Shown here one piece after another: positions 11,333-44,170 of a stretch of DNA of 49,343 bases. Position 1 is the stretch's first letter. The number at the start of each line of letters is the position of its first letter. This DNA is from Jimgerdemannia flammicorona (lineage: Eukaryota), in the NCBI GenBank assembly GCA_003990765.1, contig RBNJ01000031.1, positions 1 to 49,343 of the forward strand, written 5' to 3'. A program made the translations under genes and the position numbers. The notes under the pieces were generated by a model. The model was given only the letters and a program-made list of their open reading frames with translations, did no database searches and was not told the origin of the DNA.

Positions 11333-11531
11333 ATAGATATATTTTTAAGTTTTCACTATATTGCAGTAGAGTTGTGAAAATAAGAGCTTTTATTACATTA
11401 AAATTATTATTAAGAGTAGTATATTCTAGATATATAATATTCTTCTTTTTATAATTGATATTACTAGATTGTTCTGAGATTAGTGTCTTAGAGTGATATA
11501 TTATTTAGAGTAAAATATTTTAAACATATAT

Positions 11532-14921: not shown

Positions 14922-14925
<4 letters not shown>

Positions 14926-14964
<39 letters not shown>

Positions 14965-21254: not shown

Positions 21255-22776
21255 TTTTTCTTATTATTCTTTTTATTAACTATCTATAACATGCTACATA
21301 TCCTCATACAATATCAGTAGTCCCATTCTACCCCAATCTCAACCCACTCCTAGCCTTGTACCTTTAGGATGTAAGTTGCGACCTCACTACTCAAGTAACT
21401 AGATCCTCCTACCCAGTCTGCCCCACTCAGTAGGTATGGGTTGTAAGCCCCAACCACCTCAAGTACTTGGTATCTAGTGCACCTGACCTACCCCTATTAG
21501 TACCTCCTGTCTTGCCCATCTAGCCTATCTTGCCTGCCCATGTTGCCCATATTACATATCATCTTGCCATCTTACCCATCTTGCCCATCTTATCTGTCTT
21601 GTCTATCTTGCCCACCTGTATTGTCCATGTTGTCCATATTGCTCATGTTATCTACCCATGTTGCCTGTGTTGCCCATATTGCCCATCTTGCCTGTGTTGC
21701 CTGTATTGCCCATGTTACCTGTCTTGCCCATCTTGTCTATCTTGCCTGTCTTGCCCACTCATATTGCCTGTATTGCCTGTATTGCCCATATTGCTCATGT
21801 TGCTTGTATTGCCTGCCTGTGTTGTCCATGTTGCCCATGTTACCCATGTTGCCCATCTTGCCTGTCTTGCCCATCTTGTCTGCCCATGTTACCTGTATTG
21901 CTCATGTTGCCCATGTTACCCATGTTGTCCATTTTGCCTGTTTTGCCTATTTTGCCTATTTTGCCCATGTTGCCTGTCTTACTGTCTACCCATCTTGCCC
22001 ATGTCACCCATCTTGCCATCTTGCCCATCTTGCCCATCTTGCCTGCCCATGTTGCCCATATTGTCCATATTGCCTGTATTGCCTGTATTGCCCACCTGTG
22101 TTGCCCGTGTTGCCTGTATTGCCCACCCATGTTGCCCATGTTGTCTGTGTTGCCTGCCCATATTACCCATATTGCCCATATTGTCCATTTTGCCCATTTT
22201 GCCCATTTTGCCCATTTTGCCTGTCTTGCCTATATCACCTGTCTTGCCATCTGCCCATCTTGTCCATGTTGCCCATCTTGCTATCTTACCATCTTGTCTG
22301 TCTTGCCTGTCTTGCCCATCTTGTCCATCTTGCCTGTCTTGCCTGTCTTGCCCATCTTGCCCATCTTGCCCGTCTTGCCCATCTTGCTCATATTGCCCAT
22401 CTTGTTGTCTTGCTGTCTTGCCCATCTTGCCTATCTTATCCATCTTGCCTGCCCATGTTGCCTATGTTACCTATATTGCCCATGTTGCCCATGTTGTCTA
22501 TATTGCCCATGTTGCCTGTGTTGCCCATATTGCCCATTTTGCCCATGTCACCTGTCTTGCCATCTGCCCATCTTGCTCATATCACCCATCTTGCCATCTT
22601 GCTGTCTTATCTGTCTTGCCTGTCTTACCTATGTTGCCCATGTTGCTCATATTGCCTGTATTGCCCATATTGCCCATATTGTCTATATTGCCTGTAGCCT
22701 ACCAAACTATTGTGACTGGTAAGGTAGTAGAGGATTATTATACTGCTTGAGAGCTTGGTGGTTGAAGCAGGCTGGT
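21255..22776 (-). mobile_element. Retroposed insert carrying a minisatellite, in the gag leader of element C
   Basis: Perfect 14-bp TSD TACTTCCAACTCTA (21241-21254, 22777-22790); A-rich tail with AATAAA on the minus strand at 21255-21280. Confidence 0.82.
21508..22695. repeat. Degenerate 9-bp minisatellite (~1.2 kb)
   Basis: Units TTGCCCATC / TTGCCCATG / TTGCCTGTC / TTGCCTGTA. All three + frames are open for purely compositional reasons. Confidence 0.95.
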
Positions 22777-23467
22777 TACTTCCAACTCTACAAGGAGTTG
22801 TGGTAAAGGTTCTGGTGAGATTGATGGGACTAGTATAGGATGTCTGGCTGTAAGATCTCAGGCTTATATAATAAGATCTTTTAGTTCTTGTGTAAGTTCT
22901 TCAAAATCTCCAACAGGGCTACCTATATTGTCTGCTTGATCTGGTTGGGAGTTTTGGGCTATACTATCTTCTGGTTCTGATTGGGATCTTTCTGATGCTG
23001 GGTAGTTGATAAGTCTTGATGTAATTACTTCTCTTCCTGTCTAAATACTGATAATAACTAGTTCTCCAGTAGTGGCAGAGGTTAGTATTGTATCAAATGT
23101 ATCCAGTTTGACTGTGGGTCCTTGTAAGCTGAAAAGTTATATTGATTTTGAAATCTTCCCAGTTGAGCCCTCAAATATAACATATCTGGCTCAATGGAGG
23201 CAAATTACAAGGTTGGAGATTGATGTAGTTTGGCTTAAGCCCCAGTTACTTTGTCAAAAAGCAATAAAATGTTCTAAGATTTCTGAGATTCTTGGTATTT
23301 AGTGGTATAATAGTCAAAGCTGGATATCTGTAAGTAACTTGTATATCAATTTTCTAATTGAGACTGTTCTCTGAGTATAGTGGTGATTTTGTAAATGGGT
23401 TTCCTTCTTGAGTCAACTGGAAATTAGTGGAATTTTATATATAGTATAATGATCTCCAAAAGTATAG

Positions 23468-24999
23468 TGTAACAGTGACCTCAGAATAATGACATCAGCA
23501 TAGGAGACAGCCTTTCCTCACAAGCCACTAGATCGGAGCACAAGGAGATTATATGGTATATGAGATAAGCAATGATGACTAACTGTAAGTCATTGTGACC
23601 ACAGTACAAGCATCCTGAAGAATATAAAAGAAGAATCAAGGAACTGCAGTAGCAGCAACCAATAAGAACCACCAATCCCAAAATAGCTCAAAGACTTACC
23701 ATAAATGAAATATCTGCCACTTACTAAACCTCAAGGTCAAGGAACCACTAAGGTATCTCAGTTGAAGAAAGGATGTTCCAAGATATCAGAAGAGCTATGA
23801 GGACCCACTCAAGAAGGACTCCTAGTGTCAACCTGGGTACTGCAGATCTCTATCACTTTATCCTCTACTGCTATAAAATGGAAACAAGGATCACTATTGC
23901 TACTGAATGCCTCTAAATGTGGCAGGAGTATGAAATAGGAAACCTCCTCTACCAGAAGTTCCCACAGGCCAGCCCTCAAGAGCTACAAGATGCCACTCTC
24001 ATAGATATATATGAGACAAGAACAGCTAAGAAGATCCATCAGATCTTCAGGCATGCACCATGATTGATCCCCAACTTGGAGTATGTTAGAGTCTCAGATT
24101 TCAGAGACCTGTCATCCCACCATATCAATGCACTAGAAGTCAGAGTGGCTACAGAAACCCAGTCCACTATCACCCTCAATAGTGATAAAGTAGAAGACTT
24201 CTGGCACCCTATCCTCCAGGACAACTCAGACCAATTCCTGCAAGGGTTGATCTCAGTATTCTAAGGCCCAAGTATCTAGGTTAGATCTCCCTAAGACCCT
24301 ACATTTGTCCCTTATCTTGTAGAAGAGAAACTTATAGACTGGAGAGCTCCAGATCTTATTCCTGATTTCCCCACCACTAAATGTAATGATGTCATTGGTG
24401 ATGATGTCATTCCACACAACATCAAAGTATGCAAAAATGATGAATTCGCAGATCTCATCTCCTTCAGTGATGATGATGATGATGATGAAGCCCCCATGGT
24501 CCTGAATTTTCTGCTCTAAGTTCCATGTTACACTGGATAATGCCAGTACTGATATTCTCATGTAACATTGAATAATACCAGCACTGGTATTCTGAGGTGA
24601 CACAAAATTGTTCTAGCACCAGTATTCTGATGTGACACTGAATTACACCAGTATTCTGAATCTATACAACCATCAGTGCTGACCCTGGAACTTAGTAGTT
24701 TTAGTTATTGGAATTTATATTTAGCTTTATATCTTAGCAACCATTGAATTATATTTTGTATAAATACCCCTCTTATTTTCTCTGAAATAAAGTTAGTTCC
24801 TCTTAGTGCAATACACACACTTCCTTGCAAGTAATCTAAGAGATAATAAGACAGTTTAAAGATAAGAAGTTTGAGGACTATAAGATCTTGGGAAGGCACT
24901 CCAATAAGAACTTGCTTATAACAAACTTGAGTTAGTCTAAGAGATACATCTTGAAGAGAATCTGATATATTTGAAGGACTCAGCAACTACTATGTAACA
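23468..24999 (+). repeat. 5' LTR of A2 (1532 bp)
   Basis: TGTAACAGTG...ATGTAACA. Confidence 0.93.
23710..24519 (+). pseudogene. LTR-encoded accessory ORF (family A), decayed copy
   Basis: 810 nt, colinear with 30937-31746; start ATA and in-frame stops only. Confidence 0.8.
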
Positions 25000-25118
25000 A
25001 CTTGGTGCCCATTGGCTAGTGATTCAAGATGAATCCCTCACTTTCAAGCTAAAAAATGAACAACCCCACAACAACTATCCTGACTACAAGAGTCACCTCT
25101 GTAAGAATTCAAGACAAG

Positions 25119-28100
25119 ATAGAAATGCATCCCCCCACATTCTATGGATATACTACTGAAAAGTCAATCTTGACCTTCATTGAAGACTTTGAACAATTCG
25201 CCACTATATGAGCTCTTGGTGTGGATGCTCAATTGGCCCTTCTACTAGTTAGCCTCAGAGGACCTGCCAGAGACAAGTTCAATATAGCCATCATTGCTGA
25301 TGCTGATGCAGCCAAACTTGCCAACATGAAGGCCTTCCTCAGAACAATATATTATACTGAAGAGATCAAGCAAGCTCTCAAGGATCAACTCAATACTATC
25401 TGCCAGAGACTTAGTGAAGATCCCAACTCATTCTAAATCTGAATCTGCCACTAGATTATCTTGGCTGGCTATAATGACCACCTCAAGAAACAAATAGCAG
25501 ATTTAACTTTCCTCAAAGGAGTTCACCCTGAAATTGCTCTAGCAATCCAGTATACCTCAGCTACACTGACCCTTGATCAGAAAGTGGTCTTTGCACAGAG
25601 ATATTGGACTGTCAGACACCCTGCCAAACACTCAATGGAGAAAATAACTGGCATCAAGATGGAGCCATCAAAGCCAACTAGTATCTTACCTGCCACAGTT
25701 GTAAATAGACAACAAACCCCACCTACCCCCAAGACAATCAAAGCTGACCCAGTGGAAGAACTTGCCAAGCAGTTCACCAAGATGACTACATACCTTGGTG
25801 ATATTGTTAGAGAAGTCTGAAGTGCCAACAGGAGACCAGTGCAGAGATTTGCAGCTGCTACAGAAGAACACAATATTACATGCTTCAGATGTGGAGAAGA
25901 AGGCCACTATGCAAAGAATTGCATGACTGAAACAAGATGCAAAGCCCAACCAAGTAATGCTAGCAGAACTAGAGAACAAACCAATGCAGTAGTCATCGAG
26001 GATATTGATGACACTGATGATGAAGAATACTATAAGGAGCTTGAATTCTACCCTGCTACTGAAGGTACCAGAATCTGGTCCAAGCCCTATGACAAGAAGA
26101 GCAACAGCAAGCCAGTTGGAAGACCAATGAAGACCCCAGCTATCACTATTCAAAGTAAGACTCAATCTAAGGAGATTGATCAAGACATGGAGTTAGATGA
26201 AGCTGCTCATCAAATTATTGAAGACACTACTCCAGTCTCAGGAGAAAGTGAAAGCAAGAAGGAACAGAAGCTGTGCAAGACCAAGATCTATCAGTATGAC
26301 ATCTACAAGGACCTCAAGGAACAGAAGGTCAATGCTACTTTTGGATAACTAGCTGAAGTCCCTGCCTTCAGACAGCAGTTGAGAGTAGGACTTGCAACTA
26401 CTGCCAAGAATCAAGAGTACAAGATTGTAGAAGCTCACAATGCACAGGAAGAATCTGAGAACTTAGGTGAAGAATCCGAAGACCAGCACAAGACATCAGC
26501 CTATACCCTATGTCAGATTGAAGACTATATCTTTAATACCATCATTGATACTAGTACTGGAGGATATCTCATGAGCAAGAAGACAATTAACCACCTAGAT
26601 TGGGATATTGAAGAGTCCACCAAGATGGTCTATGTTACAGTAGATAGTATACAAGCTACCCCCCTTGGTAAAATCTGAGAAGTCTCCATCAAGATAGGAG
26701 GAGCTACTATCTCAGTAGATATGATTGTTACAAGCACCACTAACTATGATATCCTCATTGGCAACCAATGGCTCCACATGGCCAAGGCCATCATTGACCT
26801 CAATGCCCAGAAGATACAGATCAACTATAGAGGAAGAAAGGTATGAGTCTCTATCAATGTCTACAAAGAAGTTCTACCAGACATAGAGGAAGGAGATGAA
26901 GAAGACACAGAGGTCTTCATGCACTTAGTGAATAAGAATAAGAATAAGATACCTAAGCTCACAGATGAGCAGTGGTACAACAAGATCATTGATAGCTATG
27001 CCCCTCAAGAAAGATGCCCCTATGGTACTAAGATATACTGCTCTGAACACCTGAATGACTACTGGTCCTGTACCAATGAAGTCAGGAAAATCCACTAACA
27101 GAAATATGAGCAAGAAGCTGCCAAAGCAAAAAGAAAAGCCAAAGAAGATGATCAGCCCCCAGAGCTCCAAGCTGACAGTGATAATGAGGAGGAACAAGAA
27201 TTAGATATCACTCTCAAGGTCAAGAAGTTTCACCCCAAAGCCAAGATCCCAGAATATAAGACTGAAGGAACCATAGGAATAGACCTTGCTAGCATTCAAG
27301 ATACTACCCTCAAACCACAAACCACCACCCTACTTGATACTGGAATTGGAGTCAAGCTGCCAGAGAACCATATCAGAATTATCAAGACCAGGAGCAGTCT
27401 GGCCAAAAGCAAAATCTCAGTTGAAAGAGGAGTAATTGACCCTGATTACACTGGTGAGATCTTCCTCATAGTCAGAAATCACAACCACACCACCCCCTTC
27501 GAAGTCAAGAAGCATGACAGGATTGGCTAGATGCTGATCTACGAAATCAAGAAGCCCAAGATCATTGAAGCCATCGAACTCATCAAGACCAAGAGAGGAG
27601 AACAAGGCTTTGGATCTACTGGAAGAGGAGCCTATGCCGCTACCAAGATTACCAAACTTAAGTACAAGAAAGACAAGGACCAGAACAAGCACACATATAT
27701 CATTGGAGAAAACTTTCCCCTGGAGGAACAGCTTCTCAAGATCCTGCACCGGAATGAAGGAGTACTTGCTATAGACTTCAGGGATATCCACAATCAAGAA
27801 CCTAAGTACTACTATGAAGTTGACACTGGTGATATCAAGCCCATCTACCAGAAAGCCAGACCCATACCACCTGCCTACAGAGAGTGGCTGTGAGCAGAAC
27901 TCAAGGAAATGGAAGAAGCCAGGATCATCAAGCAAGCTATCAGCCCCTGGGCCTCACCCATTGTCCTTGCCCCAAAGAAAGGAAGCAAGCCTGGAGAGTT
28001 TGTACCAAGACTCTACATTGACTACAGGAAGCTCAATGCCATCACCAAGAAGGATAGGCAGCCCTTGCCAAATATTCAAGAAATTCTTACCACTCTTGGA

Positions 28101-29141
28101 AGTGAAGCCAAATACTACACTACCTTGAATCTGTTCTCAGGCTTCCATCAGATTGGTCTCACTCAAGATACCAGTGAGAAATCAGCCTTCATTACACCTG
28201 ACGCCACCTATATCTACCTGTGAATGCCATTTGGAATGTGCAATGCCCCAGCAAGTTTTCAGCAAATGATGAACAGAGTCTTCAGCAACAAGATTGGAAA
28301 ATGGCTCTTTGTCTATGTTGATGATATAATCATCTTCAGCAATACTGCACAGAAACATATCAATCATATACAGCTAGCCCTCAAGAAGCTCAAGGAGTAT
28401 GGCCTCTATATCAAGCCCAAAAAATACAAGTTTGCAGCTCAAGAAATCACCTACCTAGGACATCTCATCAACCAGACTGGAATCCACACAGACTCCATGA
28501 AGATCGAGGCTGTTGCCTACCCAAGACCCAGAACAACTATAGAAGTCCATGCCTTCCTTGGACTGGCCAGCTACTACAGAAGATTCATCAAAGGATACTC
28601 CAACATTGCAGCACCTATCTACAAGCTACTGAAGAAGGAGACCAAATTCGAATGGACCAAGGAGTGCTAAGAAACCTTCAATGAACTCAAGACCAGGTTG
28701 ACCCAAGTATCTATCCTCAGAAGACCAGACTGGAACCTAGAATTCATCCTGCAGACAGATGCAAGTGCTATAGGACTTGGAGCAGTCCTAGCTCAGAAGA
28801 AAGATGGACATGAATATGTCATCTCCTATGTAAGCCAAGGTACCTGTAGAGCAGAACAGAACTATGAGTCATGCAAGCTTGAATGCTTAGCAGTAGTTTG
28901 GGCAGTAGACAAGTTCCACTACTATCTAGCTGGAAAATACTTCACTATTCAAACAGATCACTCTACTCTTGCCTGGCTATTCCACACTCTGAACCCCAAA
29001 GGAATATATGCCAGATAGATCTATAGGCTACAAGAGTATGACTGTACTGTCAAGCACCACTCAGGAAAGATCAACACCAATGCTAATATACTCTCAAAGA
29101 CACCCTGAAACACCCCCATCAAGACTATTCAATATGAATAA
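25119..29141 (+). pseudogene. pol: A2 gag-PR-dUTPase-RT-RH, one reading frame broken only by stops
   Basis: ORF-track fragments 25221, 25461, 25839, 26379, 27531, 27909, 28224 and 28698 share one frame. Motifs CFRCGEEGHYAKNC, IIDT(S), RGEQGFGSTG, SPWASPIV, YVDD, LQTDAS. Confidence 0.95.
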
Positions 29142-30381
29142 GGAGCTATACTATAGATTAATCAGCTATCTTGGGCAGTAGAAGATGTCCAACCACCTTG
29201 AACCTTGGACAATCAACATCATCAACTAGACTTAAAAACAGTTTGAATTAGACAACACTATACTCAGAAAAGGAGGAAAGCTAGTAATACCTGAACACAA
29301 GAAGTATCAAGTAATGAAGAAAGTACATGAGCAAGGACACTTAGGAGGAACCAACACATATGATAAGGCAAGAAGGACCATGTGGTAGCCTAAGATAGAA
29401 GAAGACCTGTACCAATTTGTCAAAGGGTGTGACAAGTACCAAAAACAGAAACAAGATCAGCAAGACCAGGCACCCAGGTCATCAAGAATTGAGCCTATCT
29501 CCTTCCACTACATCACAATGGATATCATTGGACTACTACCAGTAACACTATCAGGAAACTATTATATTATAGTTATTGTAGACCTCTTTACCAAATGGAT
29601 AGAGGCAGGAGCATTACAAGAAGCCAATGCCCTCTCTATAGCTGACTTCCTGTATCAAGAAATCATCTGCTACTACAAGACACCAAAGCAAATCACAACA
29701 GACCATAGAACAGAATTTGTCAATGGATTCTATGAGATAATGTATCAGAAATACAAGATCCAGCACATCAAGACCACTGCATACCACCCTCAAGGAAATG
29801 GACAGACAGAGAGAACCAATAAGACCCTTAAGAATATCCTAGCGAAGATCTCAGAGACATATGAGAATTGGGATAACTATCTCCTAACTGCCCTCTCTGT
29901 CCTACAAGACATATGGTCACAGAGTACACACTTTACCCCAAGAGAGCTGCTCTTTGGAGAAGAAGATTCTGATGGAACCTCAGCCATGAATCTAGACCTA
30001 ACTTGGAGATAGGTTGATGCAGAAATCTGGAAACTACACCAAATCAGGAAGAAGGCTGAAGATTACATCACCAAGTCACAAGTACTGATAAGGAAGAATA
30101 TAGAAAAGAATCACAAGGCCCTAGAACCCATCTGAATTGGAGAAAAGGTTCTACTGTATTGAAATATGGTAGAAGCCTCATGGTTGCAAAAACTGGAGCC
30201 CAAATGGGAAGGACCCTTCTACATACAAGATATCAAGGGAACCACCTTCTGACTTAGAAAAATCTCAATGACCATACTACCTACTATAGTACATAGGACC
30301 AGACTCAAGAAGTACTATGAATCTATACAAGAAAAGCAAAACATAATGACTGCTCATGAGGTTCTAGTCTGTGAATCATAA
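29134..30381 (+). pseudogene. A2 integrase, separate ORF
   Basis: ATG at 29134; HEQGHLGG...CDK(Y)Q; core 29518-30012 MDIIG...DLFTKW...TAYHPQGNGQTERTN; KLEPKWEGPF. Confidence 0.92.
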
Positions 30382-30694
30382 CAGCATGTCTCATGACCAG
30401 CAGGCTATCTGTCTGGACCATTCTCTAATAGATATGGCACTGGCAACTACTCATCTATGAGACTTTTGAAGTCAGAGGAGTTCGAACCATCAACTAATTG
30501 GTCAAGATCAGAATCAGACTCTTGCTCTATATAAAGAGAGCAACCCTTCACCATCATGCCAAAATACAAAGGGAAGATACCAGCCCATAAACACCACTTT
30601 TTGACCCCTTGCCAGAGGTTATGGGATCAGCAAATTTTTCAAGATTGGACCAATGAATAAGGACACTCAAGAAGATTCTTATTCAGGAGAAAGA

Positions 30695-32216
30695 TGTAAT
30701 AGTAACCTCAGAATGATGACATCAGCATGGGAGACAGCCTTTTCTCACAAGCCACTAGATTGGAGCACAAGGAGATCATATAGTATATGAGATGAGTGAT
30801 GATGACCAACTGTAAGTCATTGTGACCACAGTACAAGCATCCTGAAGAATATAAAAGAAGGATCAAGGAACTGCAGTAGCAGCAACCAATAAGAACCACC
30901 AATTCCAAAATAGCTCAAAGACTTACCATAAATGAAATGTCTGCCACTCACCAAACCTCAAGGTCAAGGAACCACCAAGGCATCTCAGTTGAAGAAAGAA
31001 TATTCCAAGATATCAGAAGAGCTATGAGGATCTACTCAAAAAGGACTCCTAGTGTTAACCTGGGTATTGCAGATTCCTATTACTTTATCCTCTACTGTCA
31101 TGAAATAGAAACAAGGATTACCATTGCTACCGAATGCCTCCAAATGTGGCAGGAGTACAAAATAGGAAACCTTCTCTGCTGGGAGTTCCCACAGGCCAGC
31201 CCTCAAGAGCTACAAGATGCCACTTCTATAGATATATGCAAGACAAGAATGGCTAAGAAGATCCATCAGATCTTCAGGCATGCACCATGGTCAATCTCCA
31301 ACTTGGAGTATATTAGAGTCTCAGATTTCAGAGATCTGTCATCCCACTATATCAATGCACTAGAAGCCAGGGTGGCTACAGAAGTCCAGTCCACTATCAC
31401 CCTCAATAGTGATGAAGTAGAAGACTTCTGGCACTCTATCCTTCAGGACAACCCAGACCAATTCCTGCAAGGGTTGATCTCAGTATTCCAAGACCCAAGC
31501 ATCCAGGTTAGATCTCTCCAAGACCCCACATTTGTCTCTTATTTTGTAGAAGAAAACCTCATAGACTGGAGAGCTCCAGATCTTATTCCTGATTTCCCTG
31601 CCGCCAAATGTGATGATGTCATCAGTGATGACATCATCCTGTACAACATTGAAGTATACGAAAATGATGAATTCACAGATCTCATCTCCTTCAGTGATGA
31701 TGATGATGATGATGAAGCCCCCATGGTCCTGAATTTTCTGCTCTAAGTTCTATATTATACTGGATAATGCCAGTACTAGTATTCTTATATAATACTGAAT
31801 AATGCCAGCACTGGTATTCTGAGGTGATGTGAAATTGTTCCAGCATCAGTATTCTGATATGATACTGAATTATACCAGCATCCTGAACCTATACAACCAT
31901 CAGTGTCAACCCTGGAACTTAGTAGTTTTAGTTATTGGAATTTATATTTAGCTTTATATCTTAGCAACTATTGAATTATATTTTGTATAAATACCCTTCT
32001 TATTTTCTCTGAAATAAAGTCAGTACAATATATACACTTCCTTACAAGCAATCTAAGAGATAACAAGATAGTTTAAAGATAAGAAGTTTGAGAACTATAA
32101 GATCTTGGGAAGGCACTTCAACAAGAACTTGCTTATAACAAACTTGAGTTAGTCTAAGAGATACACCTTGAAGAGAATCTGGCATATTTGAAGGACTCAG
32201 CAATCACTACATGATA
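30695..32216 (+). repeat. 3' LTR of A2 (1522 bp)
   Basis: TGTAATAG...ACATGATA, followed by TSD ATAG. Confidence 0.93.
30937..31746 (+). CDS. LTR-encoded accessory protein, 269 aa, unknown function (intact copy)
   Basis: Uninterrupted ATG-to-TAA ORF entirely inside the LTR; TATAAAAG ~85 nt upstream; predicted helical N-terminal half and acidic C-terminus; colinear in all four LTR-A copies. Confidence 0.8.
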   Translation: MSATHQTSRSRNHQGISVEERIFQDIRRAMRIYSKRTPSVNLGIADSYYFILYCHEIETRITIATECLQMWQEYKIGNLLCWEFPQASPQELQDATSIDICKTRMAKKIHQIFRHAPWSISNLEYIRVSDFRDLSSHYINALEARVATEVQSTITLNSDEVEDFWHSILQDNPDQFLQGLISVFQDPSIQVRSLQDPTFVSYFVEENLIDWRAPDLIPDFPAAKCDDVISDDIILYNIEVYENDEFTDLISFSDDDDDDEAPMVLNFLL

Positions 32217-33211
32217 ATAGGTAATTTCTATATAGCATGATGATCTCTGTATAGTGCAGTAGATTTCTTATATAGGATGATCTTGGTGATATTTCTTATA
32301 TGGATTTGGCAGATAACTCGATTTGGCTAACTGGGAATTGTACCAGTGCAGTTTCTTCTATACTAGGCTCACTTGATGTAAATAACTTGGATGTCACAGA
32401 TTATTCCCAAATCAGTAGCTTTAACTGGGAATGCAGATAACTTGAAAATGGCAGATGATGTGGATTCTTCCTGAAATAGTGGCTCTCTGAGAATACTACT
32501 CAGGTAGTGTAAATTCTTTCTGAATCAGCAGCTTCAACTGGGAAATAACTTGGGTTCTTGACAAGCTACATTGAGACTGGTTTTGTTTGCATGAATAGAT
32601 TACTGTAAAGTTGTATCAAGGACTGGCTTGTGGTAAGAAAGATAGGCTCTCTGAGAATGTGGCAAATAACTCAAAAGACAGTAAAGTTCTTCCTTAAACT
32701 TGGTGGCAAACTTCAGGCTTATCTGGCAAGCAAACCAAAAATGGACCCATTCTTTATATCAGAAAGTGGACCAGAGTGAAAAGGGGAATCAATGCTCACA
32801 ATCTCCTAGTAGTGGCTGTAGAGTGGGTATTTCTCCTAAGTGTTGCAATCCTTTCTGGATCAAGTGGCTTTTGGCAGGTATATCTCTCAAAGTATAATAG
32901 GCAGACTTGTCTTTTGCTTTTGAATTCAGACTTTTGGACTGAGGTTTATTCACTCTTGTCTCTGAGGTAATTTATAAATTATGGTTACTATCTAGTTGCT
33001 ATATTGCTAATTATAGATCTACTATTTATAGCAAGTTGTACAGGTCCAGCACAAGTGTGCAGGTCATGTAGGTCCTACACAGATATACCTTATCTGGTAG
33101 TCTGGCTATTTATACAGTTTTTACAGTAATGGTTGCTGGTTACTATGCTGTATGTTCACATTATCTGGCTAAGATATAATTTGGGTAGTATATCTTGGTT
33201 TATCACAATAT

Positions 33212-35563
33212 ATATAATAAATTTAGTTTATTAGAAGTATGCTCCTAGATTGTTATTCCATAAGACTGATTTTTGGACATAATTATAGTTAACCTAAACA
33301 TTATATACCAGCTACCCATTTCAGAGATATATGTAACTGTTATATGCATCACCATCACAAAATATCAATATATATGTCAAAATTGAAATTTGAGCTTGAT
33401 TCTATACTAGTGATAAAATAAGTAAGATGTTATACTAAAAGATGAGCTCAGGGATAGTTGCTTTGATGTAGTTTCTGAAGGCCAAAGAAATAATGATATG
33501 TACCATTAAAGTTCTAAACAAAGACAGAAAATCAAGTACTATCTCAGCAATTCAAAAGAAGATAATGATGTTGATTGATTTAAACCACAGCAACATAATT
33601 GCCATTTCATATCAGCAAGACAAAGGATCTCGCATTCATAATGATGGACTGTGCTGATGGGCCCATATATCTCTTGGGCATGATCAAAGAAACTGATGAT
33701 TTTATCATTCAAAGTATCTCATTAATGATATCAGAAAAATATTATATATCAAGATATAAAGCCCTTATAAGACTATTATTGATCTGACTCTGGAAGTCAG
33801 TACAGTATGTCATTAATATATACTAAGACATATATATTGAGCAATAGTTTAAAGATATCATTTATAAGGTTCTGAAAGGTTACTGGAGTATTTATTAAGC
33901 CAAAAAGTATAACTCAGAACTAATAATATCCAAATTATATCCTGAAGACCATCTTTTCCACATCTTTCTCATTAATAAGGATCTAGTAGTATCTATTTTA
34001 CAGATCTGATAGAGAGAATATCTTGGCCTTAAAGATCTGATAGAGTAGCTTATTGATCCTTAGAAGAATATACTAGTTCTTGATAATGATCTTATTGAGG
34101 GCTTGATAGTTAATATATATTTACAGTGAGCTATTCTTTTTCTTGACAAATAGTAAAATAATACTTATTTCTACCTCTCTCTTATTCTGGAAATAAGGTA
34201 TTACTTAAGGACTTGATATAAGTATATATTAAGAAGCCTTTTAATTATTCATTTCACTTAGTGGTATTTACTAAGATTTTTGAGAAAGTGCTGTTTTTTT
34301 GTAGTGAATAATAATAGAATTGCTCTTCTTTAGTAACCATAGTTACAAGAGACTTGTTCTTACTATATATAGACTAAATCTCTTATAATTCAGATTTAAA
34401 GAGATTGGTTTCTTTTTTAGATTTATATATCAGTTCTCAGTTCTGATAAAAGTTAGCTAGACTTCTAGAGTTTAGTTAGAAATACTAGAGTAACTTATAT
34501 AGATATTATTACTAAGAAACTCAGGAAAATATATATGAAGAAAGAGTTATATTTGACTAAGAGCTGAACTAAAACTACTTTATTTTAGGTATAAATTCTG
34601 AGGTATTTATATATATTAGCTAAGAGTAATTTTATAATTTTCTGGCTAAATATAAGTAGCTAAATATAGTATATATTTAGGATCTTTGTGATTATGATCT
34701 TTTATGATCAGGATTTTTGTCTATAATCAGAATAGTAGTCTATAATCAGGCTAATACTTTTGGTAGTATACTTGATTAGATAATATAGTTACTTAGATAT
34801 AGATATAGGTCTCAGTATTTAGAAGTTCTAGTATTTTATTTTTATACTTGTTTTATTTATTTTATTCATTTATAATATTATTGCTAAATTATATAATTGT
34901 TATTTATATTATATCTCACCTATTTACTTATTTTATATATAATTTTATTATATTCTTCTCTCCTTAGAAATCAATATCTATATTAATTTCTATTTTATCA
35001 ATCTTGAAGTTGAGGGTCAGTGAGAGAATATTATTCTTATTCTCATTTTTATCATTAGTATCCCACTGGTTTATGGAAGAGATAACTGATATCTCTATAT
35101 CAATGTCCAGAGTAGTGAAGTTAATAAGATCTATAAATAGTTCTTACTAGTCTATAATTATCTAAGAAGAGATAAAAGATTACTATCTAATATAGTTAGT
35201 ACTATCTAAGTAGAGAACTTGATCTTTATTTCTTAAAATATTTATTTATATGAATAAGTTTTCAAATAGATTAGAAAGACCTTGAAGTTATTAGTCAGAG
35301 TTATTATTCAGTAAGAGATTCCAATAGAGTTTACAGTCTCTAGACTTAAGAGAGATTCAAGAGTAGACTTTGATAGCTATTCTTTATTTTAGTTTATCTA
35401 CCTCTAGGTATAAGAGATTCTGAAAGTCTGTAATTTAAATAAAGTTAATATTAGAGATAGTATAGAGAGTATACCTGAAGATTTGATAAATCTTCTTAGC
35501 TAGTCTTTACTTATATCTATTTAGATTAGTTCAGATATTAATCTTGTTCACTATAAGGCCTTA
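33212..35563. mobile_element. Highly degenerate AT-rich transposon relic (possibly Gypsy protease region, + strand, near 33430-33800)
   Basis: Extreme TpA enrichment and no ORFs. Fragment LPFHISKTKDLAFIMMDCADGPIYLLGMI resembles a retroviral-type protease flap region. Confidence 0.35.
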
Positions 35564-36648
35564 ATAGTTATTGAGATAGTAACTCAATATATAGATATAT
35601 GACTTTATAATATACTCTATTCTATCAGTTTTATATCATTCATCAGTAATATGTAAAATATATAACTTAAGTATTTTGAATAAATTACTTCTTCTGTTTA
35701 TCATACAAAGATTATGAGCTTTAATTAGTAACTAGAAACTCTTCTAGTATATATACTATACTGTAAAGTATATAAATATACTAAGTATAAGTATCTATAG
35801 ATAAATATAATCATTACTAGTCCAGGTGATAAAGAAGTCTACCAGATAGTAACAATAAAGAAGTCTATCAGAGGTAATACTGAAGTCCTTCTAGATAATA
35901 GGTGAAGTTCTCTCTGATATCAAGGCAATTATAACAAAGATGTCTACCCAGATATTTGAGGTAATTACAAAGTCCTCTTTAATAGCAGAAGATAATTATG
36001 ATAAAGTCATCTGTCTAGATATTCAAGATAATTATAAGTTCTTCTAGATAGCAGATAAAGTCCTCTCTGATATTTAAGATAAACACCAATAAGATCAAAA
36101 GTACAGATATAGTAAATGAAGCCAGTATAGATAATAAGATCAAAAGTATGAATAAGGTTATAGAGAAGATTAATAAGATTAGTAACAAGACTGATAAGAT
36201 TATAAAAGAGACCAATAAGACTAATAAGGTAGAAATATTAAGGTCAACAGTATAGATAGTTTTGTTATTCAGCAAAAGTATAAATATAGCCAATAATAAT
36301 AAAGATAATATCTAGTTAATAAATTTTGATATAATATAGTATATGATATACTATATATATTATAAAGATATAATAATAGTAATAGCTATAGTAATGACAT
36401 TAGATTAAGCAGGAGTATATAGTCATCTAACAAAGTCTAGTAGCTAATCAGATATTTTTCAGACTCTTAAAAGTCTTATATTATATATATATAGATATCT
36501 CTTATTTATAAGCAAATTATATATATTATACTTCTATAAGTATTAGAATATTTTTTGATCTGTAAAAAATATATAGGATTTCTAGTTATAATTTGGGTTA
36601 TATATATAGTTCTAGTTTTTGTATATGTTATATTACTTTATACTCTAG

Positions 36649-36713
<65 letters not shown>

Positions 36714-36956: not shown

Positions 36957-37351
36957 TTTACTCACCTCAACTGGGAGAACCAGGTACTACCCACTATGTT
37001 ATGCTTTGATGAAGGTTTTTCTTTACCTGTTATTCTCTTTGGAGTGGCAGGGGCTATTCTATTTGGCTTGGACATGGCCTTGTACATACATTGGGTTCTC
37101 AGGCATACACTTTCGGTCATTGGTGTATGGTTGGATTTCCCCTGGTGGTAGGGAGAGCATGGTGTACAGAATGAGGTACAAGCCAATATAGGCCCTGCTG
37201 CACCTAGTATGATCAAGCTGCTGGACAATAGCTAGTCTAGATTAATGGAGGGACAGTGCTTGGTGGGTGGTGGGGGAGGGTTTTGGCCTATATAGTCTAG
37301 GTTCCCTTCCAATAAAATTCTACAGGACATGAGTCCATTAAAAAAAAAAAA
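36957..37351 (+). mobile_element. 5'-truncated LINE family L-1 copy inside the PLE pseudo-LTR
   Basis: Reverse complement of ~14960-15340; polyA; TSD AACATAACTGA/AATGTAACTGA. The empty site is seen at ~40983. Confidence 0.88.
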
Positions 37352-37955
37352 AATGTAACTGAAAATGCATCAGCCATTTATTGCTATGTAAAAACGTGGT
37401 CCTTATATACAAAATATAATGTCCCAAAAGGGAGGATGTGCCACAACTTGGAGTGAACCAAATTAGGAACCACATGACCACTGGAGATAGGTAGAGGTAA
37501 AGAGGGAGCCAATCCCAGTTACAGGATAAAAATTACAAACAAATACAAACAAAACAAATCCAAATCGAGATTAAAAAACATCTGCAGACCCTGGAGGGGT
37601 GAGCGCAAGTGAGGGGTGAGGCCAAAATGGAGTGAGCTGCAGTGAGTCTGAGCAAAGCAAGGAGCTGAAGGCAGCAGAGGGGAGCAGAGTAAGGCTGAGA
37701 CCCCGGAGTGAGTGCAAGACCCTGGAGAGGGCAAGGATGTTTTTTAATCCTCTTCAGTAGAGCTGAAGGTACCAGAAGGTAATGAAAATGCAAAATGAGA
37801 GTGATGGATTAAAGAGGAAACAGAAGAAAGATGCAAATGAGCAATCAGAGAGCATCAAGAAAGAGATAAAAGTCCATAGTGAGAAAGAGAAGAGTGCAGG
37901 ACAGTATCAGGGCATTGAGCAACCCAGTGAGCATGATCAAATGATATGATGAAAA

Positions 37956-39716
37956 TTAGAGATGGGAAAGAAGAGGGAGTATAGAGAGGGTAAGAGGGGA
38001 GGGAGGGATAAAGAGGAGAGAGAAGAGTAGAGTGAACAACAGACTATTCAACAGAAGCAAGCAGATCATGAATGATAGAAATAGGGAGGCATGATGATGG
38101 ACCATAAAGTTACCAAGAACCTGAATAGCAGATACCCAGTCAGAACAATGGGAGCAGCATAATGCAAGATGATGAGCCTCACCACAAATACATTCAAGAA
38201 GAGTATGATGAGGATGATTGGACAAGAAGTCAGGGAACTATTGGGAATGGGGAAAATATAAATAAACAATAGTTTGGAAAGGAGAAAGAGAAATGGAAAG
38301 GTTCAAAAAGGGAATACTAGTCTTACTGCACACCCAAGTAATAGAATAGTGGAGAGGGTAGATACCCAGAAATACACTAGGGATATCAATACCAGCAACA
38401 GCAAAGATGATAAAGTCATCAATGTATCAGCAAAAGAAGATATCCCCAGCCCAGAATGCAATAGAAAGAGGTGAAGAGAGATCACATAATACACACAGTT
38501 CATGGGCCAGGCCAATGAGGTTGGCAAGAGTGGAGACACAATTTGTTCCCATAGCAATACCAGAAGTCTGGTGAAAGGAGCCAAGAGCTGACTCAAAATA
38601 ATTAGAGCTGCAGATAAGGAGTATAAGCTCAATGATGGAAGCCAATGAGACCAGGGAGTCCAAAGGAAAGATAATGGAATCCAAGAAGTGAAGGCAATCA
38701 TCGATCTCATCAAAATAAATAGCAGTATAAAAGGAGGAGAAATCACCAGAGGCCAAATGGGAAAAATAGTGAATAGGCACAATGGTGGAGCAGAGAAGGG
38801 CAAGCTCCTGAGTATCATGAAGAATAGTATACTCAGGCCCAAGATGGTATTATAAGAGAGCTATCCAGGAGAGGAAGAAGCAGGATAACTACTTCAAAAT
38901 CTCAGTGGTAGGGGAACTATAAGCAGTCATAATGAGATGCCAAGCCAAAGTAGGCTTGTGAACTTTAGGAAGAGCATAGAAAACCAGAAGAGAAATATCT
39001 GGGGAGGACAAAGAGTCCTGGAAGAAGTTAAAAATGGGGTTCACAAATAGAGAATTCAAAAGTAATCTGGCATGAGCCAGAGAAACCTGAAGAAGAGTAA
39101 GAATCTCATCCAATCCAAGAGTGCTAGGCTTATAAGCCATGGCTTGGAAGAGGGCAGAAAGGCCATCAAGGTAGAGTGACTTAGGAATAAGTACAAAACC
39201 TTGATTCTTATCAGTGACTGTGAGCAAATGCATGAGCAATTGCTTGACTGATTTAAGCATGGTATGCATGGCATGGTCCAAAACTAAGTAAGAGCGAGCA
39301 TGTCTGGGAATGGACAGTGAGCAAGCCATGTTGAGGAATACACAGTGTGAAGAGACATTGAGAGGGGGGACCCAATTGCTGGGAACAAAATAGCAAGAGA
39401 GCATCTCACCATGATCTTGAAAGAAAATGGCAAGATCAAGAGCATAATGAAAACATATAAGATGAGCTGGATCAGTGAAGGAAAATTGTGAGAGAGTTAC
39501 AGGAAAAATGAAGTGAAGACCCAAGGATAAGGCAAAGACTTGAAGGGGAGAAAGGGGACAGTCAGTCAAAGAGAAAGGAGGACAAAAGTGTTCCAAGAGA
39601 AGAGTAAACCTGAAAGTTTGGGACAAGCAACTGGGAAAGGCAAAGGGGGGACAATATGAGGAACCACTCAGGGCACACCAGAAGCAATGATGGAATCTGA
39701 GAAGAGACAGGGACAT
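37956..39716 (-). pseudogene. Penelope-like reverse transcriptase
   Basis: TDKNQG, FYALPKVHKPTLAWHLI, GDFSSFYTAI, FHQTSGIAMGTNC, (R)YIDD, thumb SNHPHHTL...GEA(R)(R)LAL.CS. No GIY-YIG motif seen downstream. Confidence 0.88.
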
Positions 39717-39743
39717 TGGGGGAGAATTACACTGAGGGGAAGT

Positions 39744-41008
39744 TTAAGAGTAGGAGGCCTTCCCCTTTTTTTGAAGGCAGTGAATCTGACAAATGGGAGC
39801 ACACCCTATCAGAGTGCCAGACCTTGCAGCCACAGGTTTTCGTATAGCCCTTACATTTGGGGGCACAGGTAGAGGAGGCAGAGGAGGAACCAGCAGAGGA
39901 GGCTGAAGGTGAGTGAGCAGCTGAAGGGGTAGTAGTGCGAGGAATACCACCATGAGGACAGATGGACTTGGCCAGGTGCAGTAGGCACAGTGGAGGTGAC
40001 TGGAGTAGATAGCACAAGGCCAGGCCCTGACAGGGCAAGAACCAAGTTGGTGGCCATGCTTGGGGGCAGGGGGAATGGAGGAGGAGGCCTTGGCAGGAGA
40101 GGGAGACCAAGAAGAGGCCAATGAAGTCTGGTTGGGCTTGGTGGGGGTCTTGGTGGGGGTCTTGGAGGGGGCCTTGGCAGTGGTGGCAGTGAAGGAATGG
40201 ACCTCAGCATGAGCAGCAGTGTGAGCTTTGGTACGAATGGCCTTGGAGACTGAAACCTTGGGGGAGGCAGGCAGGGGAGCAGTGGCAGCAGCATGAGTAG
40301 CAGCAGCAGTACATAACATCTCCTGCTCATGAAGGCAAGCAACAAAAGAGGTACCAGCAAGGAGGAAATGACACACAGCATTGATGTCAGCAGCGACAGA
40401 AGGAATATCTTAGATGGCAAAGCCACAGAAGTGGGCAGTATCTAAGAGGCAAGAGGAGGCAAAGGCCATAAAGGCAGCACAGATATAGTGGAAGGAGGTG
40501 GAAGCAGTGGCGGCAGAAGCAGTGATAGCATCAGCAGCAGCAAGCTTGGCAGTGGCAGTGGCAGTACAAACCTCTTCAGAGAGAGCTTAGTGGCAGGCCT
40601 TGGGGAGAATGGAGTAGCAGATGGCAGGCAGAGCAATGATGTTGATGTTATGGTAGAGATGAGCCTCCTTGGCAGAGAGGGCAAGAACTGACTGGAACTG
40701 AGAGAGAAGCAGATGACCAGAGGGACAAAGGTCCAGGGGGAGGGAAAGGATGGTAGATGAGACATAGGACTCGAATGAGACAGTGGCAGGAGTAAAGACA
40801 GAAGGGGGAGGAGGAGGAAGAGCCTCATCCATAAGCTTGTCAATAAGGATGGAGGCCCTGAGGGCAGGCAGTACAGCAGAGGAGGAGGAAGGCCCAGTGA
40901 GAGCCAAGGGAGTGAACCCAGAGCCAGTGTCAAAGTGAATAGAAGACATGTGGAAAGGCATGTATAAGGGAGATAAATAAAGAATGTAACTGAAAATGCA
41001 TCAGCCAT
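39744..41008 (-). pseudogene. PLE ORF1 (Ala/Pro/Ser-rich, Cys/His cluster), frameshifted
   Basis: ATG at 41008 lies inside the pseudo-LTR, ~30 nt after TATATAAGG; fragments 40587-40961 and 39744-40376 (CPVRAWPCAIYSSHLHCAYC). Confidence 0.55.
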
Positions 41009-41697
41009 TTATTACCACATAAAAATGCAGTCCTTATATACAAAATATGATGTCCCAAAAGGGAGGGTGCACCACAACTTGGGGCAAACTGAATTAGGAA
41101 CCACATGATTACCAGAGATAGGCGGAGATAAAGAGGGAGCCAATCCCAGTTGCAGGATAAAAATTATAAATAAACACAAACAAAACAAATCCAAATCGAG
41201 ATTAAAAAACATCCACAGACCCCAGAGGGGTGAGTGTGAGCGAGGGGTAAGGCCAAAATGGAGTGAGCTACAGCGAGCCTGAGTGAAGCAAGGGACCAAA
41301 GGCAGCAGAGGAGAGTAGAGTAAGGCTGAGACCCCAGAGTGAGCATGAGACCCCAGAGGGGGTAAGGATGTTTTTTAATCTTGATTTGAATTTGTTTTGT
41401 TTGTATTTATTTGTAATTTTTATCCTGCAACTGAGATTGGCTCTCTCTTTATCTCTGCCTATCTCCAGCAGTCATATGGTTTCTAATTCAGTTTGCCCTG
41501 AGTTGTGGCATATCCTCTCTTTTGGAATGTCATATTTTATATATAAGGACTGCATTTTTACAAGGCAATAAATGGCTGATACATTTTCAATTATATTCTT
41601 TGTTCATCCCCCTTATACACACCTTTCCACATATCTTCCATTTACTTTGATACTGGCTCTGGATTCACTCCCTTAGCTCCTGCTGGGTCTTCCTCCT

Positions 41698-43730
41698 TAT
41701 AAGAGGGTTGCTTTTTAGAGTAACTATTATGTAGTTCTGGAAAGGTTTTGCTGGAAGTTCTGGATGTTCTGGAAGACTGTTTTCTTAAGGTCAAGATCAA
41801 TTTTATATGGAGTATGTCCTCTACACTTATTGAATACGAGATTGAGTTGACATCTCAACCAAAGTCCTTTTTTGGACTAGTTTTAGATATTTAGAATTTT
41901 CTATATTTCAGAAAGTTTAAGAAACTAAGACCAGCTTAGTTGAATTGGCATATTACTGCAAACAATACTCAATTAGGAAATTTCATAACAGGGTTAGGAG
42001 TAGGACCTAACAGGGAGCAGATTTACTTAAGAGTGGTTTGTGGGTTATTAAATAGGTTTATTTGCTATTCATGATATTGCTATACTAGAAGTAGTTGTGT
42101 AAAGGAATACTGTGGGAAGTACTCAGGAGTTGTGTTTGGATTATTCAAGTCTGAGATTCTGAGGTCTGGGGGAGGGGGTATTTATACTAGTGAGGGGCTA
42201 TCTGGACTATGCTAGATATAGATGTAGCACTAAGTGCCTTGCTAAATCAGAATACAGTTATGTAGTACAAGTGTAATCTGACATATCAAGAGATCATCTG
42301 ACTGCTGAGTCAGTTCACAGTTATATCGTACAAGGCTAATCTAATTATACTATGACTGCTAGGCTATTTATAGATTTAGATACTGTCTGAGTAGCCTTCA
42401 ATGATATCACCATCGATTACATCATTTCTGATGAAGTAGTCATCTAGGAAAAGTGGTTTGCAGATTACTTCTCCTTGTTTGCTGAGGTAATAATACATTA
42501 GAACTTTGTCTCCATCCTACAAGATAGCATTATCAGTCTTATATGCTGGGTAAGGTGTTGGTGGGTAAAGGAGGGGTATATCATCTTTACTTTCATCAGT
42601 TTCGCTATCTGCATATCTTCTATAGGTTACAGCACTATGAGTTGCAGAGTTGTAGTAAGCTGGTGGCTATAGTTCATGTTGCTCATACTCAGGTGGTAGA
42701 GTGGTTGGTTCAATCTTGAGGGTTGTTTGGAGGTATAGGTTATATTCTCCAGTCTCTTCATTATAGTTAAAGTAATCAGAGGTAAATGTGAGTTGGTATT
42801 CATGCCAGTGGTTATTGTCCCAATAAGTCTTGTATACTATTATGAATTGTTGTAAGTTCATTGGCAAGGTTGGTGGTGTGATCAGGGTTGGCAGGGATCC
42901 TTGGCTTGAGGTCATGTCAGCATCAGAGAGATCATTGTCTTCTACTTTGTCTTCATCAAAGTAGATTATATTGTAGACATCCTTCATGATGTATCTAACT
43001 TAGGACATTTGCAGGATATGATTATTGGAGTGTGGGAAGGTTCTGTCTGTGGTTTTGACATACTTAAGATACTTGTGGTTGAGTTTTTATATCATATTGT
43101 CAATTTGGCCATAGGATAGAGTAGTAACCATTTTAGCTATAGTAACTTGGAGGTGGAAAATAATAGTGCTATACTCATAGAAAAGTTCTCGATGTTTGCA
43201 GGCAATGAGTTTCTGGTGTTGAGATATCTGGGTAATGTCTATATCATGGTGGTGTTTAACCATGTCTTCTAGGAGGTAGCTGATCTGGTAGTAGCTTGAG
43301 ATTTGTCCAATTTGGTGGGCCTTGTTGAGCATGTTTAGGGCATTCCATCAGGCTTCCACGAAATAGAGGGGTGCCAGGCTATGGATATTCATAAGAGGCA
43401 GAGGAGAAGTGGCTCGGTTGATAATGGCATTCCAAATGTTAGTGCAGATACAGGTGTAGATCTCAGTGGTCATATTTGTGTGTTTGGAAGTTGTGGTTGT
43501 TGTTTGTTTTGGTTCTCTGGTTTGACACATATTGGTACTTGGTATATATGCATTTAGTCCTAATTAGTAAGATTCTATTTATGTGAATCTTGTATTCTGT
43601 GACTTCATATTGACTCAGCTTTGTGTGCTGTAACTTCGGTTTGACTCAGCTTCATGATCAAGCAGGTGATTTCTAGATTTGTTCAGAGGGTGACATGTGA
43701 TTTCAGTGGCTTGGAGGTTGTATGCTTATA
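41698..43730 (-). mobile_element. Solo LTR of family B (2033 bp), second copy
   Basis: TATAAG...CTTATA (decayed TG...CA); perfect 5-bp TSD CTCCT; colinear with 2613-4651. Confidence 0.92.
42667..43530 (-). pseudogene. LTR-B-encoded accessory ORF (~287 codons)
   Basis: ORF-track fragments 43348-43530, 43087-43332 and 42667-42987 are all in one frame, separated only by in-frame stops. Confidence 0.78.
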
Positions 43731-43928
43731 CTCCTCCTCAGTATTTTGAATAAATTACTTCTTCTATTTATCATAATAATAGTATTAATAGATATAGTAA
43801 TCAATTTTGTACTCATATCAGATTTTCAAATAGCTAGTAGCTTAATAGACCCTCTCAATGAGTTCTTAGCAGTTGAGGATAAAATATTTTAGATCTTAAC
43901 TAGTGAGATTAAGGATCTCTAAGTAGAG

Positions 43929-44170
43929 GTTTTTTTTTTTTTTTTTTTTTTAAAAAAGTTACTTAGACTCTCATATTTATTATCAATCCAATCTATACCA
44001 ACTATAATATAAAAATACACCACTCCTATTCAATCTCTCTGAGGAATTAAAGAAAACCACTTTTCTAATAGTCTGAATCTCAAAAGTTCTTTTTCTATAT
44101 TATAATCTAGATATAGCTAAAGAGGTAATTCATAAGACTTGAGAAGAGCTAGCTTTGGTGGGCTGTTTAA
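43929..44170 (-). mobile_element. Old LINE 3' fragment related to family L-2 (right boundary uncertain)
   Basis: PolyT followed by GTTACTTAGACTCT...TTTATTA, resembling the reverse complement of the 6507-6847 tail (AATAAA...AGAGTCCAAGTGAC). Confidence 0.4.

Follow-up and report, generated by a model that had tools for sequence, protein, structure and literature searches.

A candidate accessory gene inside the long terminal repeats of Ty3/gypsy-type retrotransposons from Jimgerdemannia flammicorona

Retrotransposon long terminal repeats (LTRs) are generally regarded as DNA with a regulatory role only, and annotation pipelines mask them. In the LTR of mouse mammary tumor virus (MMTV), the U3 region contains sag, an open reading frame (ORF) for a superantigen, and the product, Sag, is a type II membrane glycoprotein. 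Here, we analyzed a 49,343-nt stretch of DNA from Jimgerdemannia flammicorona (contig RBNJ01000031.1, positions 1 to 49,343; hereafter the window) and describe a 269-aa ORF located inside an LTR of a Ty3/gypsy-type retrotransposon. In our judgment, the chances are about even that this ORF is an accessory gene of the element family, located entirely in the LTR, probably in its U3 region, and equipped with a promoter of its own. The case is built on its location in the LTR, on coding constraint in the active lineage, on a diverged family of homologues, and on a conserved upstream TATA box (TATA1) and leader. The closest layout is that of MMTV sag, which is also a few-hundred-codon ORF contained wholly in an LTR, which it expands to more than 1 kb, and duplicated at both ends of the element. 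The two systems differ in that MMTV is a vertebrate betaretrovirus, whereas the elements described here are Ty3/gypsy retrotransposons; moreover, the proteins show no Pfam or PDB sequence relation, and the window protein possesses a basic N-terminus and an acidic tail. Our literature search for protein-coding frames within retrotransposon LTRs revealed none but MMTV; it covered few subscription journals, so prior publication is possible.

Two plant systems share part of this arrangement. The LTR of barley BARE1 carries two TATA boxes, and both promoters give rise to element RNA; the present LTR likewise holds two candidate promoters, the difference being that both BARE1 promoters make element RNA. 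In the Cassandra terminal-repeat retrotransposons in miniature (TRIMs), the LTR contains an independently transcribed 5S RNA gene that depends on RNA polymerase III (pol III). The likeness here is a candidate self-promoted gene unit that is duplicated together with the LTR, although the unit is a pol III RNA gene in Cassandra and a protein gene in the window. The additional ORFs (aORFs) of LTR retrotransposons are placed, in the available part of the source, in the internal region, where most of them lie either 5′ of gag or in the interval from pol to the 3′ LTR (PMC7264820); the examples given there include the env-like ORFs of Athila and Bagy2 and the antisense ORFs of Grande, RIRE2, Retand, and Boty (PMC7264820). 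Like the aORFs covered in that part, the window ORF is an extra, family-conserved frame with no assigned function and no homologues outside elements, while it differs from them by residing inside the LTR itself and in the sense orientation (PMC7264820). Fungal Ty3/gypsy elements bearing a dUTPase include PosPlaTy3 of Postia placenta, elements of Phanerochaete chrysosporium, and Tuber Tmt1, as listed in the available part of a second source (PMC2864245). The window elements resemble PosPlaTy3-5 in the placement of the dUTPase between protease (PR) and reverse transcriptase (RT), and some of the fungal dUTPase elements drawn there carry an 'add. ORF' of no assigned function (PMC2864245). They differ in that the same part of the source puts no ORF in an LTR (PMC2864245), and in that Pfam searches at E<=1e-5 detected no chromodomain in the window elements, whose frames are decayed.

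The window (38.5% G+C, CpG observed/expected ratio 0.06) is packed with decayed retroelements nested in one another. Aligned with itself, it revealed a ~1.5-kb repeat in four copies, all on the plus strand, that bounds two related elements, A and B. These copies are the 5′ LTR of element A (A5, ~97-1628), its 3′ LTR (A3, 9734-11332), the 5′ LTR of element B (B5, 23468-24999), and its 3′ LTR (B3, 30695-32216). B3 is 1522 nt long, contains the whole gene unit, and starts with TG directly after a purine tract. The first ~100 nt of A5 are missing, positions 1-98 being other DNA whose terminal run of 32 A residues (67-98) stands in their place. The dinucleotides TG and CA form the LTR ends and are mutated in some copies. 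The two LTRs are just 87.7% identical in element A and 90.4% identical in element B (B3 vs. 23468-24986), and both elements are therefore old and dead. The polypurine tract aggagaaaga (30685-30694, plus strand) abuts B3, an identical tract precedes A3, and a primer-binding-site (PBS)-like sequence, TTGGTGCCCATTGG, directly follows both A5 and B5. Element B is flanked by a 4-bp target-site duplication, ATAG (23464-23467, with its partner at 32217-32220). Its flanks are adjacent to each other in a paralogous repeat at ~11826/11834, from which it follows that B5 and B3 bound one single insertion. As at the 3′ side of B3 (32217-32220), ATAG also lies directly 3′ of A3 (11333-11336), the 5′ side of element A being lost; its presence after both 3′ LTRs may reflect a target-site preference.

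The internal region of element B (25000-30694, plus strand) comprises the PBS-like TTGGTGCCCATTGG, gag (zf-CCHC), dUTPase, RT, RNase H, and integrase. Across the elements, the Pfam domains follow the order zf-CCHC, gag-asp_proteas, dUTPase, RVT_1, RT_RNaseH, and rve, which is the Ty3/gypsy order; the protease match was found in element A only (5089-5421), at 27.1 bits, just below the Pfam cut-off of 28.2. Given the paired LTRs, the pol order together with the gag zinc knuckle, the polypurine tract, the PBS-like site, the TG..CA ends, and the short target-site duplication, elements A and B are Ty3/gypsy-type LTR retrotransposons with a dUTPase in pol. All gag-pol frames in both elements are broken. 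A protein search with the dUTPase segment retrieved a 514-aa dUTPase and RT protein at 84% identity. The description of dUTPase-bearing Ty3 elements in fungi (PMC2864245), the soil runs considered below, and the low CpG ratio would fit a soil fungus as host.

An earlier note on this stretch had proposed a 269-aa ORF inside the LTR, and an ATG-to-stop frame was found at 30937-31746 (plus strand, LTR nt 243-1052 of 1522) within B3. It encodes a protein with a basic N-terminus, a helical middle, and an acidic, indel-rich tail ending in LNFLL. Since the frame lies wholly within B3, starting 242 nt into the LTR and downstream of the polypurine tract, it falls outside the internal region in which aORFs are placed. 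The note had further described the ORF as intact across subfamilies. The frame length of 810 nt in both the A and B lineages and the two indels between them, of 9 nt each, were confirmed, but read in register the ORF is intact in B3 alone, one of the four LTR copies. On the same strand, the A5 copy (236-1045) lacks the ATG and has 2 premature stops, the A3 copy (9974-10782) has the ATG and 3 stops followed by a 1-nt deletion (opposite 31439), and the B5 copy (23710-24519) lacks the ATG and has 7 premature stops. Among the changes private to individual LTRs, C>T and G>A predominate. In a neutral simulation, 26 changes (the private count of B3) drawn from the observed spectrum were applied to the ORF in 5000 trials, 25% of which preserved both the ATG and an uninterrupted frame (P = 0.25). 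One open copy among four thus matches chance, and intactness here is no evidence of selection: the window copies are dead relics, and the sole open frame survives by chance. That every element carries two copies of the gene, as the note had pointed out, is a trivial consequence of LTR duplication.

Some properties of B3 would suit a host-domesticated gene kept open by host selection, an explanation that we regard as highly improbable. B3 contains 0 stops, its private changes are 12 synonymous vs. 14 non-synonymous, and at residues invariant in the outside relatives it shows the fewest mismatches, 11/131, compared with 14 in B5, 18 in A3, and 24 in A5. However, an intact frame after 26 changes is expected by chance with the probability of 0.25 given above, and those same 11 of the 131 invariant positions are altered. 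Furthermore, B3 belongs to a dead element nested in other repeats, three of the four copies are broken, and the synonymous excess falls short of significance when A3 and B3, the two 3′ LTRs, are pooled (28/65, p=0.06).

Selection in the replicating lineage was assessed by comparing the four LTRs within the ORF. The two LTRs of one element are identical at insertion, and changes that are private or incompatible with the element grouping are therefore post-insertion and expected to be neutral. The window thus provides a clean internal control, in which 5′ vs. 3′ LTR decay can be set against between-lineage change and selection on the element separated from neutral decay in the host. The shared class comprises 32 ORF sites at which A5=A3 differs from B5=B3, and the post-insertion class comprises 156 sites that are either private or incompatible with the (A5,A3),(B5,B3) grouping. 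In the shared class, 20/32 differences fall at third positions and 17/32 are synonymous, compared with expected fractions of 0.35 and 0.33, respectively (p=0.0014 and 0.015). The corresponding counts in the post-insertion class, 56/156 and 48/156, look neutral against the same expectations, and Fisher tests of the two classes gave p=0.009 for third positions and p=0.024 for synonymous changes. As for indels, those in the ORF measure 9 and 9 nt between the lineages, plus the one private 1-nt deletion, whereas those elsewhere in the LTR measure 3, 4, 35/105, 1, 10, 2, and 1 nt. Logan contigs from 4 public runs, mostly soil metagenomes, yielded hundreds to thousands of matching pieces. Among the best-supported 12 of 27 indel rows from these contigs, a single one, of 3 nt, falls within the ORF, and the remaining 11 map to other parts of the LTR (3, 22, 10, 7, 3, 5, 1, 1, 2, 1, and 1 nt). 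The element family is abundant in the soil-metagenome runs, an abundance of contigs that has no bearing on transcription, and the ORF segment 31613-31714, in the acidic tail, is almost without contig cover at 80% likeness. These comparisons support purifying selection on the ORF at the level of the element family and not on the window copies. Together with the relatives described next, they indicate that the ORF was a real gene in the replicating element.

Sequence searches revealed a diverged family of homologues. A word-indexed search of 5.8 billion clusters returned 5 proteins (59-82% identity), including a full-length one of 271 aa, and a profile search of 1.84 billion representatives returned 6 matches, none fused to gag or pol; one profile match, P0010, was discounted as a low-complexity protein. 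A second, word-based profile search returned 12 proteins, including two of 325 and 342 aa at 28-31% identity. In total, the public protein sets contain about 10 credible relatives, with identity down to 27-38%, and intact homologous frames of 271-342 aa occur at 27-72% identity. The 5.8 billion clusters include no annotated cellular homologue, the named matches all being 'hypothetical protein' entries from metagenome-type sources. A scan of metagenome contigs with the distant subgroup of the family produced a single locus, L001, a 1535-nt contig without gag or pol that encodes an intact 291-aa homologue, 37% identical to the window ORF. The same scan with the close family found no locus, and scans of viral contigs and genome contigs for the ORF family found none. 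Motifs common to the family are the start MP..R..QT, followed by WxEYEI, AKKIHQxFRH, ILQDNPDQFLQGL, and FxGPxI, and a C-terminal ...LNF(LL). Where relatives carry Arg, the window ORF often has His, Tyr, or Cys, a signature of CpG decay.

It is quite unlikely, in our view, that the ORF is a passenger or relic, one that was captured from the host or once served as an internal accessory frame, has no role for the element, and owes its apparent conservation to recent common ancestry. The Pfam, PDB, and fold searches, which assign no function, and the decay of all four window copies would agree with such an origin, but recent ancestry is difficult to reconcile with frames that remain intact over the whole range of identities given above. 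The third-position and synonymous excess of the between-lineage differences, the frame-keeping indels between the lineages, and the lack of an annotated cellular homologue among the 5.8 billion clusters also argue against it. In the earlier note, the ORF had been called a selected gene. Following our comparisons, this description stands for the element family, for which the synonymous and third-position excess, the frame-keeping indels, and the diverged intact homologues speak, and does not extend to the window copies, with their neutral-looking changes and 11/131 altered invariant residues.

At 34739-35666 (minus strand), the window itself contains an L001-type copy that C>T changes have heavily eroded; it is 38% identical to L001 residues 90-291 and ends in ...INIDIDF, as does L001. 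Two diverged lineages of the gene therefore once lived in this genome. A transition-collapsed two-letter BLAST of L001 against 33-37 kb was very noisy, and its top match alone was used. A further fragment at 43812-43931 (minus strand) matches L001 residues 37-76, and a ~35-nt string is common to the junctions of both L001-type pieces (about 35665-35703 and 43737-43776); the pieces may be separate copies or parts of a single copy that nested insertions have divided. Weak profile matches at 43093-43500 and 4010-4348 were dismissed (E 0.09 and 6, respectively).

Upstream of the ORF, TATA1 (TATAAAAG) occupies 30850-30857 (plus strand, LTR nt 156-163), 87 nt 5′ of the ATG. Its context, TATAAAAGAAG, is exact in all four LTRs, and so is the stretch from a second TATA box to a poly(A)-like signal (TGTATAAATA...AAATAAA), in agreement with the TATA boxes and AATAAA reported in the earlier note. 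The leader AAAGACTTACCATAAA (30917-30932, plus strand), just 5′ of the ATG, shows 0-1 mismatch in the four LTRs. In L001, the TATAAAAG octamer lies 82 nt 5′ of the ATG, and the L001 sequence AAAGACTTACCACAAA aligns with the window leader. The 16 nt before the ATG (AAAGACTTACCAYAAA) are common to the window and L001, and the remaining upstream DNA is barely alignable. The conservation in L001 provides moderate evidence for a putative promoter and leader belonging to the ORF. The note's proposal that the ORF has its own TATA box, which draws on the similar spacing of TATAAAAG beside a common leader in L001 and here, is accordingly graded as plausible.

Downstream of the ORF, a 35-nt tandem array of 3.8 copies (31748-31880, plus strand) fills part of the interval between the stop codon and the second TATA box, its copy number differing among the LTRs (the 35- and 105-nt indels). 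This second box, TATA2 (TATAAATA), occupies 31986-31993 (plus strand, LTR nt 1292-1299), and an AATAAA hexamer resembling a poly(A) signal (32013-32018, plus strand) begins 27 nt after its first base. The succession of array, TATA2, and AATAAA would correspond to the usual end of U3. If transcription starts ~25-35 nt after TATA2, the poly(A) signal would lie at or before the start, which would render it active in the 3′ LTR only and leave a short R region. The ORF would accordingly be placed in U3 rather than R, as in the two-promoter cassette that the earlier note had proposed.

The motifs also permit other assignments. In the first, which we consider unlikely, TATA1 would be the sole promoter and TATA2 incidental, and the ORF, located in an R region of ~1.15 kb and occurring at both ends of the RNA, would open the genomic RNA as its first cistron. 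The conservation of TATA1 and leader between the window and L001 would suit this arrangement, and TATA2 stands in A+T-rich DNA that C>T decay spares anyway. It would require, however, that transcripts pass over the AATAAA 1.1 kb past the cap in the 5′ LTR yet use the one in the 3′ LTR, as judged from retroviral poly(A) control, and the array, TATA2, and an AATAAA 27 nt on form a classic U3 end. To our knowledge, no LTR element has an R region of more than 1 kb, which also counts against this assignment.

The second assignment retains the U3 placement, as in MMTV sag, and dispenses with the ORF's own promoter: TATAAAAG would be no promoter, and translation of the ORF would use the 3′ part of the genomic RNA or a spliced subgenomic RNA, as is largely the case for sag. 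We judge this improbable too. Visual inspection of the short leader that links the 5′ LTR to the gag ATG revealed no strong splice-donor-like site, and the TATAAAAG-ATG distance is kept in the 37%-identity homologue, where the other upstream DNA barely aligns.

According to the preferred reading, an LTR accessory gene with its own promoter, the layout from 5′ to 3′ would be TATA1 and a short leader, the ORF, the 35-nt array acting as an enhancer-like sequence, TATA2 as the genomic promoter, and the AATAAA 27 nt on. The ORF would lie in U3 and be expressed from a ~1.1-kb monocistronic mRNA running from TATA1 to the single poly(A) signal of the LTR, while the genomic RNA would begin at or just past this signal and thus have a short R. 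Each LTR, including solo LTRs, would represent a self-contained gene cassette. The protein, with its basic N-terminus (pI about 11.5), orphan helical domain, and disordered acidic/hydrophobic tail, would serve the element in trans. The gene may plausibly have arisen when the polypurine tract shifted upstream, so that a former accessory ORF between pol and the LTR came to lie in U3. The use of either TATA box, the use of the poly(A) site, and the function of the protein are predictions drawn here from the sequence.

The protein itself is an orphan. Residues 1-45 are basic, with an isoelectric point (pI) of 11.6 in the window protein and 11.3 in L001, while the remainder is acidic, with 18 Asp and Glu among the last 59 residues. 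An AlphaFold2 model built with 13 sequences (mean predicted local distance difference test score [pLDDT] 59.5, predicted template modeling score [pTM] 0.54) contains helices at residues ~20-165, with block pLDDT values of 54-95 (67-95 in most blocks), followed by a low-confidence tail; a model built with 6 sequences had a mean pLDDT of 34.2 and was discarded. The tail is the indel-variable part of the protein and retains conserved hydrophobic motifs in acidic surroundings, F-x-D-L-I-S-F and ...EAPxVLNFLL. No Pfam family scored above its cut-off; the sole match at E<=1, ATG5_HBR (E 0.028-0.037, in 4/13 members), was below the cut-off and was rejected as chance. No sequence relative was found in the PDB at E<=10, and the 13-sequence model had no fold match (Foldseek best E 0.29, VIA best Z 3.7). 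The ESM Atlas gave no usable match for the window protein, and for L001 just unnamed or unrelated clusters at 0.89-0.92. Our best guess is a trans-acting transcriptional regulator or adaptor. A more specific proposal, which is possible though rather doubtful, is an autonomous cassette of own promoter, ORF, and shared terminator, expressed from full elements and solo LTRs alike, whose product would be a Tas/Tax-like transactivator or a counter-silencing adaptor acting via the acidic F-x-D-L-I-S-F/LNFLL tail.

Several points weigh against an LTR gene with its own promoter as read here. Homology gives no support for any function, whether in Pfam, in the PDB, or in the fold searches, and placement in an LTR is demonstrated for the window's family alone, the context of the distant homologues not being visible (L001 spans 1535 nt). 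B3 is altered at 11/131 externally invariant residues and thus may not encode a working protein. The constraint tests use small numbers, and 29 ORF sites are incompatible with the tree, which shows that the shared A|B class is contaminated by parallel mutation. Homoplasy may consequently explain about half of its 32 sites, leaving perhaps only ~17 changes on the true internal branch, although homoplasies should dilute the signal and not create it. Nor do shared differences accumulate, in net terms, at a lower rate in the ORF (32 with 29 incompatible sites) than elsewhere in the LTR (23 with 12). The exactness of TATA2 and AATAAA is weak evidence of constraint because these motifs are A+T-rich and spared by C>T/G>A decay. 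Finally, both start sites, the poly(A) site, and the U3 placement are predictions from sequence motifs.

A conserved, self-promoted LTR gene, if true, would establish a new position class for retroelement accessory genes outside retroviruses, and solo LTRs would be potential gene copies instead of inert scars. It would also define a family of orphan proteins that match nothing in Pfam, the PDB, or the fold searches and that may have a role in element transcription or host silencing. Were the more specific proposal of an autonomous regulator cassette to hold, the gene layout of complex retroviruses would have evolved independently in an LTR retrotransposon, and a functional gene would be scattered through the genome in the form of thousands of solo LTRs.

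Other repeats surround and interrupt the two elements. A ~2-kb repeat nested in element A at 2611-4651 occurs again at 41700-43721 (85% identity between the copies); no Pfam domain was found in it, and a solo LTR and a non-autonomous element are both possible identities. A third Ty3/gypsy-type element on the minus strand (~13767-20232), also with a dUTPase, is 33-46% identical to elements A and B. Its pieces are gag (19975-20232), dUTPase (17521-17916), RT (16163-16901), RNase H (14591-14926), and integrase (13767-14333). The repeat at 11543-12848, which matches 23183-23465 and 32224-33207, may constitute the LTR pair of this third element, its upstream copy having been interrupted by element B; the repeat at 11543-12848 showed no homologue of the LTR gene.

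At 21560-22692, the 9-nt unit CATCTTGCC is tandemly repeated ~129 times (70% matches), and each of the three plus-strand frames consequently runs without a stop for 317-385 codons; such ORFs are a mechanical product of the array and not genes. The segment 37344-41380 carries ~400-nt direct repeats (37344-37749 and 40975-41380; 86% identical) and inverted copies up to 41697. Its repeats bracket minus-strand open frames of 185-284 codons (38306-41008), which have no Pfam match even at E<=0.1, and this element is unclassified. The extreme CpG depletion of the window and its C>T/G>A private changes would fit methylation-driven or repeat-targeted deamination of transposons; the L001 contig, for contrast, has 47% G+C and a CpG observed/expected ratio of 0.5. 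Homopolymer A/T runs of 22-56 nt are present at repeat junctions (67-98, 14926-14960, 36655-36710, 44638-44678, and ~43929-43951) and may represent poly(A)-type retroposon tails.

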